Positions 26,160 to 63,631 of a DNA stretch of 64,000 bases are shown one piece after another. The notes under the pieces were generated by a model that had not been told where the DNA came from, did not search any database, and was given only the letters and a program-made list of their open reading frames with translations. The DNA is from Eledone cirrhosa (Eukaryota). The DNA lies in the NCBI GenBank assembly GCA_964016885.1, contig OZ024744.1, positions 4,526,001 through 4,590,000 of the forward strand, in the 5' to 3' direction. Position numbers and translations under genes: made by a program. The stretch's first letter is position 1. Every line of letters begins with the position of its first letter.

Positions 26160-26219
26160 CTGACACTCCATACATGTTTCCTCGAAGTGCAACATCAAAG
26201 ACCAAACGTTCTCACGATA
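26160..26219 (+). CDS. Type-A 60-nt exon (first, diverged copy): [20 protein letters not shown]
   Basis: attttctag| acceptor, |gtaagt donor at 26220, open phase-1 frame. Confidence 0.6.
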
Positions 26220-29200
26220 GTAAGTTATAATTTAAGATTATCTATTAATTATTCAGTAATTTATTTATGTTTTGCACAGTAAATTTATAACTACTTAATT
26301 CAGTCAAGAATATCACACTTTATATGACAAACACCCTAACATAATCAAGGATAAACATTTGATTCACCTCCTTAGAGACCTTACAATTAGGTAAAAAGTA
26401 AAGATTCACATTTTGAGGCTATTATCAGAGTTGGCTATGAAAGAATGACATTATCTCTGGTTAAAAAGAGAAGATGAATGTTGCACAAGATACATTGCGG
26501 TAGATGGAATTATCTCATAGATCCGTATTATCATATTTTACAAAATTTCCTCAGTCACTTCTCCACTATTTTAAGTCTCCTTCGTTATTCATACACCTCA
26601 TCCTCGTATAACCTAGATCAGCCGGGGCCCTACATATTTGCTTATACCATCATATCTATTTGTTCTTTAGGACCAGTGGGAAACTACTATATTTGTCTCA
26701 TAATTCCAGACAACCCATATATAACTAAATGGTTCTAGCTAATTTAAAATACATCTTATTCTACCATTTCTTAAAAACTGACGACAAACTCTTCGCAAGA
26801 ACACCTTCTAACTTTCCTATTATTTTCTTCCGTATTTTCCACAGTTATTTCTCCCGTAGAGAACTTTGTCTGTAGGCCAAGCATAAAAACAGATACTGTC
26901 GCCAAACAACGTAAGTTGTATTTAAAACACAATTTCTATTAGTCTGTACAGAAAACTATGACATGTGTTTCAACATTAATGTCAAATCGAGATTACATTA
27001 TAGATTGGTAAACATGAAAGCCTATATAATGTGTCTGCTGGAACAGATGAATAAAATAGTGTGTAAATATATAAGTGAAGTCATGTTGGTGATTTACGTA
27101 TGTTGGTGTATACATATATGTATATTGGGTTGTATATAACATTATCGCGTAACTGTTTGTGTGTGTTTGTCCGTTGCTTTGGTGGCTTTTTGAGTGTGTG
27201 AGCCCTGTGTGTGCGTGTGTGAGTGTGAGGTTCTCTGTGCACACTCTGTATGCGTGTGTATGTTAGAATAAAGTTTAGTTATAACCACTGTCATCATGAT
27301 TAGAGAACATTGTGTAGTAAATGTATATTTACGGAGCTAAGACGCCCTGGTCCTGAAAGTTTTCATTTATATAAATACATATATATGTATATAAAAATGA
27401 AAATAAGCGGAACAATTAATCATCAAACAATCTTTTAAATAAATTAAAAAAACGATTTAAATATTCACCTGTTCTATGGCCGTTACCGACGGTTTCAACG
27501 GCAATAGAACAAGTGAATATATAAATCGTTTTTTAATTTATTTAAAAGATTGTTTGATGATTACTTGTTCCGCTCATCTTTATAGCTCTGGTATCTCAAA
27601 TTAGTACCATCGAACCACAAATATTATAAATACCATGCATATTTCTATAGGTACATAGTGCCTGTAGGAATATCCATACTATTTTATATATGTATATATA
27701 TATATATATGTAAGGCAGGGACAGCGGAAACTTCGCACCTTGTGTGTTCGGACCGGGTGTATATGTCAGTATATCAGAGATAATGTGTCTAATAACTGTT
27801 TCCTGTATTTACTATTATTTTATTTATGTATTCTAGCTGACGCTTCATATTTGTCTCCTCGAAGTGCAACACTCAAGACCAAACTTTCTGAAAATAGTAA
27901 GTTATAATGTAAAAATGATCTATTCATTATTCAGAAACTTATTTATGTTTTGATCAGTAAGTTTATAACTAGATAATTCAGTCAAGAATATTATATTTGA
28001 AACTCCCTTACATAATCAAGGATAAACATTTTATTCACCTCGAACCTCAGAGACCTGACAATGAGGTCAAAAGTAAAGATACATTTTTTCAGGCCATTAT
28101 CAGTATTAGCTATGACAGAATGACATTATATCAGGTTAAAAGGAGAAGATGAATGTTGCACTAGATACATTGCGGTAGATGGAATTATCTCAGACATCAG
28201 TGTTCTCAGATATAACAAAGTTGACTCCGACACTTCTTCACTGCTTCTGGTCTACCGTCGTTCTTCACACACCTCATCCCCGTATCCACTAGATCAGCCA
28301 TTGCTCTACATATTTTCTCATACCATCATATCTATTTGTACATTACGTCCAGTAGGAAACTACATTATTTGTCTCATAATACCAGACACCGCTTATATAA
28401 CTAAATTGTTCTAGCTAACTTAAAATTCGACACGTTATACTATCGTTTCTTAAAAATTGACAACAAACTCTTCCCAAGAAAACCTTGTAGCTTTCCTATT
28501 ATATTCTTCCGTATTTTTTTCCAGTTATGTCTCCTGTAGAGAACATTATCTCTGAGTCAAGCAAACATAGAGATTCTGTCTCCAAAAAACGTAAGTGGTA
28601 TTTCAAACCCACTTTCTACATAGTCTGTACAGAAAATTATGACACGTGTTTCAACATTAATGTCAAATCGAGATTACATTATATATTTGTAAACATGAAA
28701 ACCTATATATTGTGTATGCTGGAGCTGACGAATATAATAGTGTGTATATATATATAAGTGAAGTCATGCTGTTGTTTTGCGTATGTTGAGGTAATCATAT
28801 ATGTATTTTGTGTTGTATATATCATTATCGAGTATCTGTTTGTGTGTGTTTGTCAAATTGGTTTGGGGGCTTTTTGAGTGTGTGAGCCCAGTGTGTTCGT
28901 GTGTGCGTGTGAGGTTCTCTGTGCACACTCTGTATGCGTGTGTATGTAACAATAAATATAAGTTATAACGACTGTCATCATGATTAGAGAAAATGTGTTA
29001 CTAAATGTATATTTACGGAGCTAAGACTCTGTGATCCTAAAGTTTTTCATTTATATAAATACATATATATATATACATATATATATATATGTATATATAT
29101 ATATATATATATATATATATATATATATATATATATATATATACATATATGGCAAGGACGTGGTAACTTGGTTCTTTTTGTGTTCGAACCAGGTGTATTT

Positions 29201-62200: not shown

Positions 62201-63631
62201 TTGAGTATGTTGATGTATACATATATGTATTTTGGGTTGTATATAACATTATCGAGTAACTGTTTGTGTGTGTTTGTCCATTGGTTTGGTGGCTTTCTCT
62301 ATCTGTGAGCTCAGTGTGTGAGTGTGATGTTCTCTGTGCACACTCTGTATGCGAGTGTATGTAAGAATAAAGTTTAGTTATAACGACTGTCATCATGATT
62401 AGAGAAAATTTGGTAGTACATGTATATTTACGGAGCTAAAACACCGTGCTCCTGAGAAGTTTCATTTATATAAATACATATATATGTATATATATATATA
62501 TATATATATATATATATATATATATATATATATATATATTTATATATATATATATATATATTTATATATATGTATATATATATATATATATGTATATATA
62601 TGTATATATATATATATATATATATATATATATATGTATATATATATATATATATATATATATATATATGTATATATATATATATATATGTATATATATA
62701 TGTATATATATATATATATATCGCAAGGAGGTGGTAACCTGGTTCTTTTTGTGTTCGAACCTGGTGAATATATCAGTATATCAGAGATAATTAGTCTAAT
62801 ATCTGTGTTCTGTATTTGTAATATATATATATGTCTATATATACATACAGTTTTACTATTATTTTGTTTATATTTTCTAGCTGACGCTTCATATTTGTCT
62901 CCTCAAAGTGCAACATTCAAGACCCCACGTACTGAAAATGGTAAGAAATAATTTTTAAAATATCTATTCATTATTCAGAAACATATTTATGTTTTGATCA
63001 GTGCATTTATAACTAGTTAATTCAGGCTAGAATATTAAATTACAAACTCCCAACATAATCAAGGATAAACGTTTTATTGACTTCGAACCTCAGAGACCTT
63101 ACAATGAGGTCAAAAGTAAAGATACACATTTTCAGGCCATTATCAGAGTTAGCTATGCAAGAATTACATTATATCTGGTTAAAAAGAGAAGATGAATGTT
63201 GCACTAGATACATTGAGGTAGATGGAATTATCTCAGACATCAGTGTGCTCAAATATAACAAAGTTGACTCCGACACTTCTTCACTACTTCTGGTCGTCCG
63301 TCGTTCTTCATACACCTCATCCCTGTATCCACTAGATCAGCCATTGCTCTACATATTTGCTTATACCATTATATATGTTTGTGCTTTAGGCCCAGATGGA
63401 AACCTCCATATTTGTCTCATAATTACAGACACACAATATATAAATAAATGGTTCTAGCTAATTTAAAATACGACGCCTTATTCTACCATTTCCTTAAATT
63501 GACAACAAACTCTTCCCAAGAAAGCCTTCTAGCATTACTATTTTTTTCTTCCGTATTTTTTTCAGTTATTTCTCCTGTAGAGAAATTTGTCTCTGAGCCA
63601 GATATTCGAACAGATGCAGTCTCCAAAGAAC
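26160..63631 (+). CDS. Putative multi-exon gene body made of tandemly amplified symmetric phase-1 exons (36 of 60 nt and 14 of 66 nt), encoding a Ser/Thr/Lys/Arg-rich repeat protein
   Basis: Type A (60 nt, tttctag|...|gtaagt, some gtatgt/gtaaga/gtaaat) starts at 26160, 27837, 29306, 29839, 30045, 31163, 31684, 33169, 33703, 33909, 35015, 35536, 37015, 37549, 37755, 38841, 39411, 40908, 41442, 41648, 43190, 43711, 45164, 45698, 45904, 47040, 47561, 49021, 49555, 51014, 51550, 55333, 58236, 59671, 61287, 62881. Type B (66 nt, tttt(c)cag|...|gtaagt) starts at 26845, 28525, 32371, 36223, 40098, 44398, 48248, 50237, 52235, 55979, 58920, 60356, 61971, 63566. No stops were seen in the phase-1 frame of the variants translated. 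Confidence 0.65.
26845..26910 (+). CDS. Type-B 66-nt exon (diverged copy): [22 protein letters not shown]
   Basis: attttccacag| acceptor, |gtaagt donor at 26911, open frame. Confidence 0.6.
27406..27574. repeat. Near-perfect inverted repeat (~79-bp arms, 12-nt spacer) within an insertion in a (TA)n tract
   Basis: agcggaacaattaatcatcaaac...ctatggccgtt pairs with aacggcaatagaac...gatgattacttgttccgct, with few mismatches. Confidence 0.9.
30677..30925 (-). mobile_element. Octopus-type SINE 3' part with (GAT)n tail, amplified with the HOR (also ~34541, 38387, 42279, 46535)
   Basis: The reverse complement has ggttggtgttaggaagggcatccagctgtagaaa...aaagcggacgtaaaatg..tgatgatg. Confidence 0.75.
39099..39147 (+). 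mobile_element. 49-bp 5'-truncated SINE tail inserted in one HOR copy
   Basis: gtaatgcactgggtaattgctggccttgtgccaaaagtagaaacaatta is absent from sibling units and matches the tail of the SINE at 25926-26111. ATTA is present at both junctions. Confidence 0.85.
42540..42974. mobile_element. ~435-bp copy-specific insertion in (TA)n, a diverged relative of the 630-bp satellite
   Basis: Absent from the other HOR copies. Its ccaaccgtgaccatctccactgaaagttttcatgaaatagtcttttaagactata aligns with the satellite's ccaaccgtgactaaccccactgaaaagtttcgtgacatggtcttttgagactata. Confidence 0.8.
53567..53647 (-). ncRNA. Type I hammerhead ribozyme, stem I weakened
   Basis: Reverse complement of the 54233 motif. The 5' strand of stem I is tatgtcg instead of tctctcg. 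Confidence 0.75.
54233..54313 (+). ncRNA. Type I hammerhead ribozyme, complete core
   Basis: tctctcg CTGATGA t gccc-(loop)-gggc GAAA cagatta-ggga-taatctg TC cgagaga. Stem I has 7 bp, stem II 4 bp and stem III 7 bp. Predicted cleavage is after C54306 (GUC). Confidence 0.9.
54517..55095 (+). mobile_element. Unclassified insertion in (TA)n, possibly a PLE terminal-repeat remnant
   Basis: Unique sequence inside the monomer's TA tract. A degenerate hammerhead-like ccgaaga atcca..tgga ggaaac aatt gta lies near 55012-55049. Confidence 0.35.
56537..58055 (-). mobile_element. Insertion(s) in (TA)n, Penelope-like terminal sequence, split by a ~410-bp (TA)n
   Basis: Unique sequence inside the TA tract, with a minus-strand minimal hammerhead at 56580-56628 and a weak PRGLN* motif near 57725-57750. 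Confidence 0.45.
56580..56628 (-). ncRNA. Minimal type I hammerhead ribozyme-like motif
   Basis: Reverse complement: tagct CTGACGA a tcctacg-gtta-cgta(a)gga a GAAA tattg TA agcta. Stem I is tagct/agcta. Confidence 0.55.

Follow-up and report, generated by a model that had tools for sequence, protein, structure and literature searches.

Apparent repetitive DNA of Eledone cirrhosa probably forms the central part of a protein-coding gene built of amplified symmetric exon cassettes

The 64-kb window of Eledone cirrhosa DNA analysed here (positions past its end continue the same numbering, and the contig position is 4526000 + position) contains between 26160 and 63631 exactly 50 short cassettes of two types, 36 of type A (60 nt) and 14 of type B (66 nt), all on the plus strand and none on the minus strand. 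The first intact A cassette lies at 26160..26219, the first intact B cassette at 26845..26910 and the last B cassette of this range at 63566..63631 (all plus strand), followed at the 3' edge of the window by a spacer (63632..64000, plus strand) past which the gene model goes on. In the cassette scan all 50 copies have a (C/T)AG acceptor (37 TAG, 13 CAG) and a GT donor (GTAAGT 39, GTATGT 7, GTAAGA 3, GTAAAT 1), and all 50 are stop-free in phase 1. A flank-anchored search that tolerated gaps likewise turned up no cassette of altered length in this range, so the constant cassette length is not an artefact of ungapped scanning. Among site-intact copies across the paralogues described below, phase 1 is the sole frame open in both types; one alternative frame carries a stop in 203 of 203 A copies and the other in 145 of 145 B copies. 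Moreover, the 28 junction codons that the gene model allows are all sense codons. A preliminary description of this DNA had claimed about 50 tandem, full-length and stop-free 60/66-nt cassettes between AG and GT, all of phase 1-1, without junction stops and with the donor variants GTAAGT, GTATGT and GTAAGA. All of this is borne out, with GTAAAT as one further donor; the count of ~50 holds for 26160-63631, but the array does not end there and continues to ~126,000. Since only 22 different exon sequences, coding for 19 peptides, occur among the 50 cassettes, these count as far fewer than 50 independent observations. Homology between A and B could not be demonstrated beyond the acceptor tract. 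A 51st, B-type cassette (22472..22537, plus strand) has CG instead of AG as acceptor and is likely dead or skipped.

The cassettes follow the order ABAB, five times AAAAAB, AAB AAB and then AB doublets. The block at 29306..48313 (plus strand) consists of about five copies of a higher-order unit of ~3.85 kb with five A and one B, which are 94-98% identical and have (TA)n tracts between their sub-units. An AAB unit is present at 49-52 kb, and AB doublet units of ~1.5 kb each, likewise with (TA)n tracts between them, occupy 55333..63631 (plus strand). The 1.5-kb A+B monomer proposed earlier therefore applies from ~55 kb on, but not at 29-48 kb and 49-52 kb. A self-inverted (91%) 1-kb insertion at 53418..54465 (strand unassigned) sits in a spacer and interrupts no cassette. 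The 635-bp repeat at 1-7868 gave no cassette match, and Rfam gave no match within the 64-kb window.

A candidate first coding exon is located at 16721..16946 (plus strand), with an ATG, 75 codons plus 1 nt and a GTAAGT donor in phase 1. Past the window, the plus strand carries a further 36 A-type and 32 intact B-type cassettes at 64509-126025; variants of 48 and 78 nt, which stay in frame, occur in this part of the array, as do one GC donor and, at 109692, one B whose donor is AT. Next come, at 127051-145651 (plus strand), six diverged phase-1 exons (57, 63, 51, 66, 63 and 63 nt). The last of them, the last-but-one exon of the gene (end 145651), contains a TAG that is in frame and lies 34 nt from the exon end. 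The putative terminal exon (AT-ATG-TAG) lies from 146534 onward on the plus strand and carries the stop, with AATAAA at 146729. The resulting gene model spans ~130 kb and has 124 intact cassette exons up to ~145,650, which measure 48-78 nt, are all multiples of three and are all of phase 1-1. The seemingly repetitive DNA is thus probably the central part of a protein-coding gene, with the cassettes as its likely true exons; this single gene, predicted from sequence, would span ~130 kb.

The model product would have ~2,640 aa, against the ~1,000+ aa of the repeat protein in the preliminary description. Its composition includes S (15%), T (10%) and P (9%) at a net charge of ~0, and it contains 142 S/T-P motifs, 65 of which are of the S/T-P-R type, in agreement with the expected S/T-P-R-rich product, whereas S/T-P-x-K/R is represented by a single site. 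Hydropathy alone revealed no hydrophobic segment (largest 19-residue value 0.65), and composition together with hydropathy points to a disordered long tail. A catalytic (kinase-like) domain after the array was rejected, since all 11 loci read have a stop 2-21 codons into the terminal exon.

The candidate first exon would encode a head, MSEPKKRRGFLRRCAERARRLAESLCPCYREKRRRRRQKK, with 18 K/R in residues 1-44 and cysteines at positions 14, 26 and 28. An amphipathic helix is predicted (hydrophobic moment 0.89), and the predicted structure of the 75 aa has two helices, 3-25 and 28-47 (pTM 0.39). Two cysteines are invariant and the amphipathic face is kept in all five aligned head copies. Compared with paralogue P1, codons 1-42 show 8 synonymous and 2 non-synonymous differences (pN/pS 0.10, p=0.001), and compared with paralogue P3 the pN/pS is 0.35 (p=0.011); several pairwise tests of the head, P1-P3 (p=0.09) among them, are not significant. 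Judged from these codon comparisons, purifying selection acts on the head (codons 1-42), whereas none is seen in codons 43-75 of exon 1. The head is basic, and hydropathy gave no signal-peptide-like segment in it.

The first exon has 17 matches in the genome. For all 16 that are placed on chromosomes, the same strand bears a match to the terminal exon at a distance of 51-224 kb downstream; there are unplaced pieces in addition, and the family likely comprises about 17 related genes in E. cirrhosa. Every array read has a start exon on one side and a terminal exon on the other. The four fully read arrays have 121, 83, 26 and 285 A/B cassettes, and the amplified units differ between paralogues (AB, AAB, AAAB, AAAAAB). 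At the 11 loci the terminal stop is TAA in five and TAG in two, and four read through to a TAA 20 codons on; the terminal exon thus contributes 2 or 21 residues. The predicted copy-number variation is supported by a ~99%-identical duplicate gene, in which the cassette order is already different. Two of the 15 first exons read are broken. In one paralogue, an internal control, the first exon is frameshifted and the array decayed. In a sample of 183 B copies of standard length, 38 lack AG or GT, mostly by GA donors, and GA-donor B copies are amplified in runs in the C18 genes. Of the 285 copies in the P3 array, 3 are frameshifted, 1 carries a stop and 3 have broken sites; 64 of the 90 B copies of P3 are identical in peptide. 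Between subfamilies, exons are 51-65% identical and flanks 73-89%; exon length and frame hold nonetheless, and the A exons of different subfamilies are unlike at about half of their sites, yet still 60 nt long.

Stop gains were counted on FastTree trees with Fitch parsimony for 138 different A units and 91 different B units, excluding units with indels or broken sites, which were counted apart. In the coding frame 2 stop gains were observed versus 17.9 expected. As the five non-coding (shadow) frames also fall short (83 observed versus 124 expected), the coding-frame expectation was corrected to ~12, which gives 2 versus ~12 (Poisson P ~5e-4), and 0 versus ~4.7 for the window gene alone, parsimony counts on converted repeats being rough and the units not independent. 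Frame-changing lengths with intact sites are present in 2 A copies versus 17.5 expected and in no B copy versus 5.3, as derived from non-homopolymer flank indels, whereas in-frame length variants of 48, 51, 54, 63 and 78 nt do exist. The comparison of cassettes with spacers suggested in the preliminary description thus came out in favour of a gene, stops and frameshifts being rarer in cassettes than flanks and shadow frames predict. The cassette dN/dS is 1.0 for A and 1.4-1.7 for B (p ~0.06), so by dN/dS there is no purifying selection on the cassette sequence; positive selection is not established either, as synonymous sites also exceed flank divergence. One pairwise cassette alignment suggests compensating indels inside exons. 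Selection appears to act on the frame, the composition and perhaps the length of the tail rather than on the particular sequence. The exon anatomy, the family and the signs of selection on open frame and head are demonstrated at the level of the DNA.

No protein relative of exon 1 was found among 1.84 billion representatives, by word searches or in the Atlas; exon 1 was the only query, the cassettes (19-21 aa) being below query length. When exon 1 was scanned against Pfam, PEHE alone matched, below threshold (E 0.027), and searches of the open-access literature listed no description of such an octopus family. Among the runs listed for the exon 1 region none is on record as RNA. The sequencing runs X1-X3 cover introns as well as exons and have the appearance of DNA. 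In run X4 one 509-nt contig is identical over 414 nt to a P1-type first exon and its upstream DNA and ends 8 nt before the first-exon donor. Among the matches listed for X1-X4 there are no exon-exon joints, which was counted neither for nor against splicing.

The preliminary description had compared the locus with the schistosome micro-exon genes (MEG), which have 10-20 mostly 15-bp exons (range 3-81 bp), the central ones alternatively spliced, an N-terminal signal peptide and products of <190 aa, and are lineage-restricted and hard to annotate (bioRxiv 10.1101/2023.06.21.545858). The analogy holds for the short symmetric exons (48-78 nt, multiples of three and within the MEG range), lineage restriction and difficult annotation, but fails for exon size, well above the usual 15 bp, for exon number (124, of two repeated types), for the product of ~2,640 aa and for the signal peptide, as no signal-like segment is present by hydropathy alone. 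SmPoMuc and NBPF/Olduvai are architecturally closer, although membership of either fails. SmPoMuc of Schistosoma mansoni is a multigene family in which a small exon with introns forms ~1-kb tandem units separated by microsatellites; it evolves in concert with introns more alike than exons, and its S/T/P-rich repeats, encoded by one 27-bp exon and varying in number up to ~20 per gene, precede a 234-residue C-terminal region in a secreted, glycosylated protein with splice variants shown by cDNA (PMC2576457). The Eledone family likewise has microsatellite-separated tandem exon-plus-intron units in a multigene family, introns more homogeneous than exons between subfamilies, varying repeat number and S/T/P-rich repeats. 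Unlike SmPoMuc, its genes have two exon types (60 and 66 nt) in 26-285 copies with higher-order units, and the model has no C-terminal domain, hydrophobic segment or sequence match. The primate NBPF/Olduvai (DUF1220) family is described as comprising 23 paralogous genes with an exon-doublet repeat encoding the ~65-aa Olduvai domain, a higher-order block added in tandem inside genes besides gene duplication, conserved exons bracketing the expanded middle, and a disordered product with predicted phosphorylation sites and furin processing (bioRxiv 10.1101/2021.07.06.450945). The ~17 Eledone genes resemble it in the exon doublet or higher-order block expanded within duplicated genes between conserved exons and perhaps, as composition and hydropathy suggest, in a disordered product with predicted phosphorylation sites, but their units encode 20-22 aa per exon, and each gene amplifies a different one. 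The Pfam scan, confined to exon 1 because the cassettes are too short, brought up no Olduvai domain.

We consider it highly probable that the locus belongs to a real protein-coding gene family built of amplified symmetric exon cassettes. A dead or never-expressed exon pair, amplified as a satellite within segmental duplications and with frames open merely through youth, would agree with the cassette dN/dS of ~1, the runs of amplified broken cassettes, the surrounding satellites and segmental duplications and the missing protein match for exon 1. However, it is very improbable given the depletion of stops and frameshifts, the half-different A exons of constant length, the purifying selection on the head and the bracketing of each array read; moreover, the one clear pseudogene differs in that its array has decayed. 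The claim of a hidden gene of tandemly amplified symmetric exons is upheld by the phase-matched start exon, the terminal exon, the ~17-gene family and this depletion, and the preliminary description as a whole is partly supported.

Accepting the same genes, their point might instead be combinatorial exon skipping, with a different cassette subset per cell or tissue and many isoforms, as in schistosome MEGs or SmPoMuc; this was the reading of the preliminary description. Uniform phase 1-1 without junction stops would permit it, GA-donor, stop- or frameshift-bearing copies in otherwise intact genes would need it, and the exons diverge far more than the introns between subfamilies, with the high B dN/dS. 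On the other hand, tandem exon duplication itself demands symmetric phase, splice sites are uniformly strong and within a gene most copies do not differ (the 50 in the window comprise 22 sequences, and most B copies of P3 share a peptide). Skipped subsets would therefore differ chiefly in length, so that length variation is likelier than combinatorial isoforms, and we regard this reading as unlikely. Rather doubtful is a nuclear product whose head would serve nuclear import or nucleic-acid binding, with the S/T-P-R tail as a phosphorylation-controlled chromatin or condensate spacer, e.g. in spermatids. PKKRR (residues 4-8) and RRRRR in the head, which we take to resemble consensus nuclear localisation signals, the 65 S/T-P-R motifs and the clustered, inverted, near-identical gene copies, presumably similar to ampliconic germline families, speak for it; the tail is, however, charge-neutral instead of basic, with its lone S/T-P-x-K/R site, and the amphipathic face and two invariant cysteines (5/5 copies) fit membrane binding better. 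An orphan family of ~17 genes with up to ~285 interchangeable exons per gene, in which unequal crossing-over and skipping tune both length and make-up of a disordered, membrane- or chromatin-tethered brush cell by cell, with selection-driven exon turnover and convergence on NBPF/Olduvai, combines several of these elements and seems improbable to us.

According to the preferred reading of a coding family, splicing would for the most part retain all cassettes, and the product, of ~2,640 residues, is predicted to consist of a short basic, Cys-bearing helical head followed by a disordered tail of great length, balanced in charge and with many S/T-P sites. By analogy, the head would likely anchor the protein at the inner face of a membrane; the role as a membrane-anchored phospho-brush is the weakest step and, taken by itself, less likely than not. 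Arrays would grow and shrink through unequal crossing-over of exon-plus-intron units, each gene having amplified its own unit (AB, AAB, AAAB or AAAAAB) and introns having been homogenised more than exons. Since all exons are of phase 1-1, gain, loss or skipping of a unit would keep the frame, and broken copies would therefore be tolerated.

If expressed, these would be, to our knowledge, among the most exon-rich genes known, with up to ~285 cassettes in one copy. Repeat masking would lose them, and the protein collections searched hold no relative of exon 1. The ~17 paralogues, live and dead and each with an independently amplified unit, constitute a natural experiment on the features that selection maintains in a disordered repeat (frame and length more than sequence), which also bears on whether symmetric exon arrays serve length tuning or isoform diversity. 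If the improbable orphan-brush interpretation were true, the NBPF/Olduvai build would have arisen convergently in an invertebrate.

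Between 26160 and 63631 the window (G000:C28:4526001-4590000, in a genome of 3.0 Gb) carries 36 cassettes of type A (60 nt) and 14 of type B (66 nt), without exception on the plus strand. All 50 of these putative phase 1-1 exons are bounded by (C/T)AG and GT and are stop-free in phase 1, which confirms the exact lengths, acceptors and donors of the preliminary description. No extra cassette of altered length turned up in this interval when it was searched with gaps allowed and the flanks as anchors, and none of the 28 possible junction-codon combinations gives a stop, again as had been stated. 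The 50 cassettes comprise only 22 distinct exon sequences. The A+B monomer of 1.5 kb proposed for the whole array is valid from 55 kb onward, but at 29-48 kb the repeat unit measures 3.85 kb and holds five A and one B. The feature is real and larger than first described; the array continues past the window to 126,025 (window numbering, as below).

The candidate first coding exon, exon 1 (16721-16946), has its ATG at 16721 and ends in the phase of the cassettes, because 75 codons and one base precede its GTAAGT donor. Six diverged phase-1 exons follow the array up to 145,651, and the terminal exon (AT-ATG-TAG) lies at 146,534, with AATAAA 195 bases further on. Splice sites are intact in 124 of the 126 cassette-like exons, which together with the first and last exon give a joined model of 7,953 nt. 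Its first stop, codon 2,637, falls in the penultimate exon, 34 nt upstream of the final junction, and since by the 50-nt rule a stop this near escapes decay, this one would do so as well. In the predicted protein the cassette-encoded tail is made up of 15% S, 10% T, 9% P, 8% K and 8% E among other residues, has a net charge of about zero, contains 142 S/T-P and 65 S/T-P-R sites and lacks any hydrophobic segment. The N-terminal head carries 18 K/R among 44 residues and has a hydrophobic moment of 0.89, and a structure model built on an alignment of five sequences (pTM 0.39) gives two helices, 3-25 and 28-47, with a hinge at CPC.

Exon 1 has 17 matches genome-wide and the terminal exon 20, which represent 18 loci and two partial pieces. 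All 16 first exons placed on chromosomes have a same-strand terminal exon 51-224 kb downstream; one further pair sits on unplaced contigs, and the terminal exon at C28:44.23 Mb is without a first-exon match. As judged from sequence, this is probably a real gene family. Four arrays were read end to end, namely those of the window gene (121 A/B cassettes) and its paralogues P1 (C28:126.7 Mb, 83), P2 (C28:45.25 Mb, 26) and P3 (C28:43.4 Mb, 285), and the amplified unit differs gene by gene in all four. Six genes on C18 were examined over their initial 10 kb, three of these also at the 3' end, and an inverted twin of the window gene over 30 kb at the 5' end and 30 kb at the 3' end; four members are known from one or both ends only. 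The twin shows ~99% identity to the window gene at the 5' end, with cassette order already divergent. One decayed copy has a frameshifted first exon, and the 11 loci read at the terminal codon have TAA (five), TAG (two) or a 20-codon read-through (four).

Six near-identical members in both orientations lie within 4.2 Mb of C18 (5.15-9.38 Mb), and the twin is 4.3 Mb away from the window gene (C28:0.09-0.22 vs 4.54-4.67 Mb); further copies of the window gene are unplaced pieces (C114, C159, C1507). Some of the near-identical C18 and C28 members may be assembly haplotype duplicates. In X1-X3, DNA-like sequencing runs, the P1-type first-exon contig has a depth of 320-430 and most other listed contigs about 10, which, in filtered records where contig depth is not copy number, is a weak hint of variation in gene number among individuals or species. 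Among the matches listed, no contig reproduces the first exon of the window gene exactly. In the rows given for X1-X3 and a fourth run, exon-exon junctions are absent, which counts as evidence neither for nor against splicing.

Selection was assessed on trees built from distinct units of standard length whose splice sites are intact (138 A, 91 B); those with an indel or a broken site were tallied separately, and the later-read remainder of P3 was left out. Coding-frame stop gains numbered 2 for A (12.0 expected) and 0 for B (5.9 expected). Since the remaining five frames were also short (83 vs 124), the expectation is overestimated by about a third, and after correction 2 gains stand against about 12 for A and B together (P about 5e-4) while the window gene taken by itself has 0 against about 4.7 (P about 0.01). 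Among cassettes whose sites are intact, 2 A (17.5 expected) and 0 B (5.3 expected) have a length that changes the frame, with flank indels, homopolymers excluded, as yardstick. Stops and frame-changing lengths are therefore both scarcer than expected, as had been predicted, and a dead satellite is a very improbable reading of the array. Variants of 48, 51, 54, 63 and 78 nt do occur, and the remainder of P3 adds two 58-nt copies and one stop. In a sample of 183 B copies of standard length, 38 have a broken splice site, mostly in one GA-donor lineage repeated in runs, which counts against uniform constraint. In this lineage GAAAAT replaces GTAAGT in up to six consecutive copies of C18 genes, and it includes the lone stop found in a sampled B cassette; such copies could be either skipped dead exons or exons with non-canonical GA donors.

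The frame is kept, but cassettes show no conservation of amino-acid sequence, with dN/dS at 1.0 in A and 1.4-1.7 in B. Identity between subfamilies is 51-65% in exons and 73-89% in flanks, and in many pairs synonymous-site divergence exceeds flank divergence, a pattern consistent with both intron homogenisation and positive selection. The head, encoded by exon 1, is constrained: over codons 1-42 of this exon, 8 synonymous and 2 non-synonymous changes separate the window gene from P1 (p=0.001), and pN/pS against P3 is 0.35 (p=0.011), the test between P1 and P3 being not significant (p=0.09); codons 43-75 show no sign of constraint. An amphipathic basic helix with adjacent cysteines is a pattern suggestive of acylation and membrane binding, and by this analogy the head suggests both, so that a role as membrane tether is put forward tentatively. 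Its main rival is a nuclear role via the motif PKKRR.

The surroundings are rich in repeats. At 1-7868 a T-rich unit of ~635 bp is repeated in tandem (about 16 copies, 78-98% identity, the array starting about 2,100 bases ahead of the window) and matches neither Rfam nor the cassettes, and upstream of the window lies a purine-rich satellite of 48-bp units, at least 22 kb long. A GC-rich minus-strand stretch (~8000-14100), part of which also occurs upstream of P1, has broken frames without Pfam families that we take to resemble a CRE/SLACS-like non-LTR reverse transcriptase. In intron 1 a 117-codon minus-strand frame (23876-24226), likewise without Pfam families, presumably resembles the GIY-YIG endonuclease of a Penelope-like element. 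A (CAC/CAT)n low-complexity tract of 2 kb (14126-16118) stops 600 bases short of the ATG, and similar tracts precede exon 1 of P1, P2 and P3; it could be a promoter part or a mere component of the duplicated block. A 96-bp tandem repeat occupies 8 kb of an intron late in the window gene (128100-136330), behind a presumably LINE-like fragment, and 1.5 kb in P1 and the C18 genes.

Searches with exon 1 turned up no protein relative in 1.84 billion representative sequences, by word searches or in the Atlas, and nothing above threshold in Pfam. The family resembles several known systems in how it works, without belonging to any of them. In SmPoMuc (PMC2576457), exon and intron units separated by microsatellites, a multigene family and introns more similar than exons are found as here, whereas SmPoMuc is a secreted mucin with a 27-bp exon repeated up to about 20 times. 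NBPF/Olduvai, with 23 paralogues, shares exon doublets, higher-order blocks and many paralogues, and its product is disordered, as is predicted here from composition and hydropathy (10.1101/2021.07.06.450945); a sequence relation was not found. The initial analogy to schistosome micro-exon genes holds for short symmetric exons, the sole common feature (10.1101/2023.06.21.545858). Tandem gene clusters and restricted families are described in a cephalopod genome paper (PMC9068888), in passages that have nothing resembling this family; nor was such an exon-amplified gene family found described in open-access literature.

Units of exon and intron would be gained and lost through unequal crossing-over, with (TA)n tracts lying between them, and because the phase is symmetric, such gain or loss, or skipping of damaged copies, would be harmless to the frame. 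Given that strong splice sites are found throughout and that most copies are identical, near-full inclusion would be the default, and combinatorial splicing as purpose of the array is unlikely. The sequence makes it likely that these exon-amplified repeat genes form a new orphan family. The protein predicted from them would act as a disordered, tethered brush, with a length that varies among genes and probably also between alleles.
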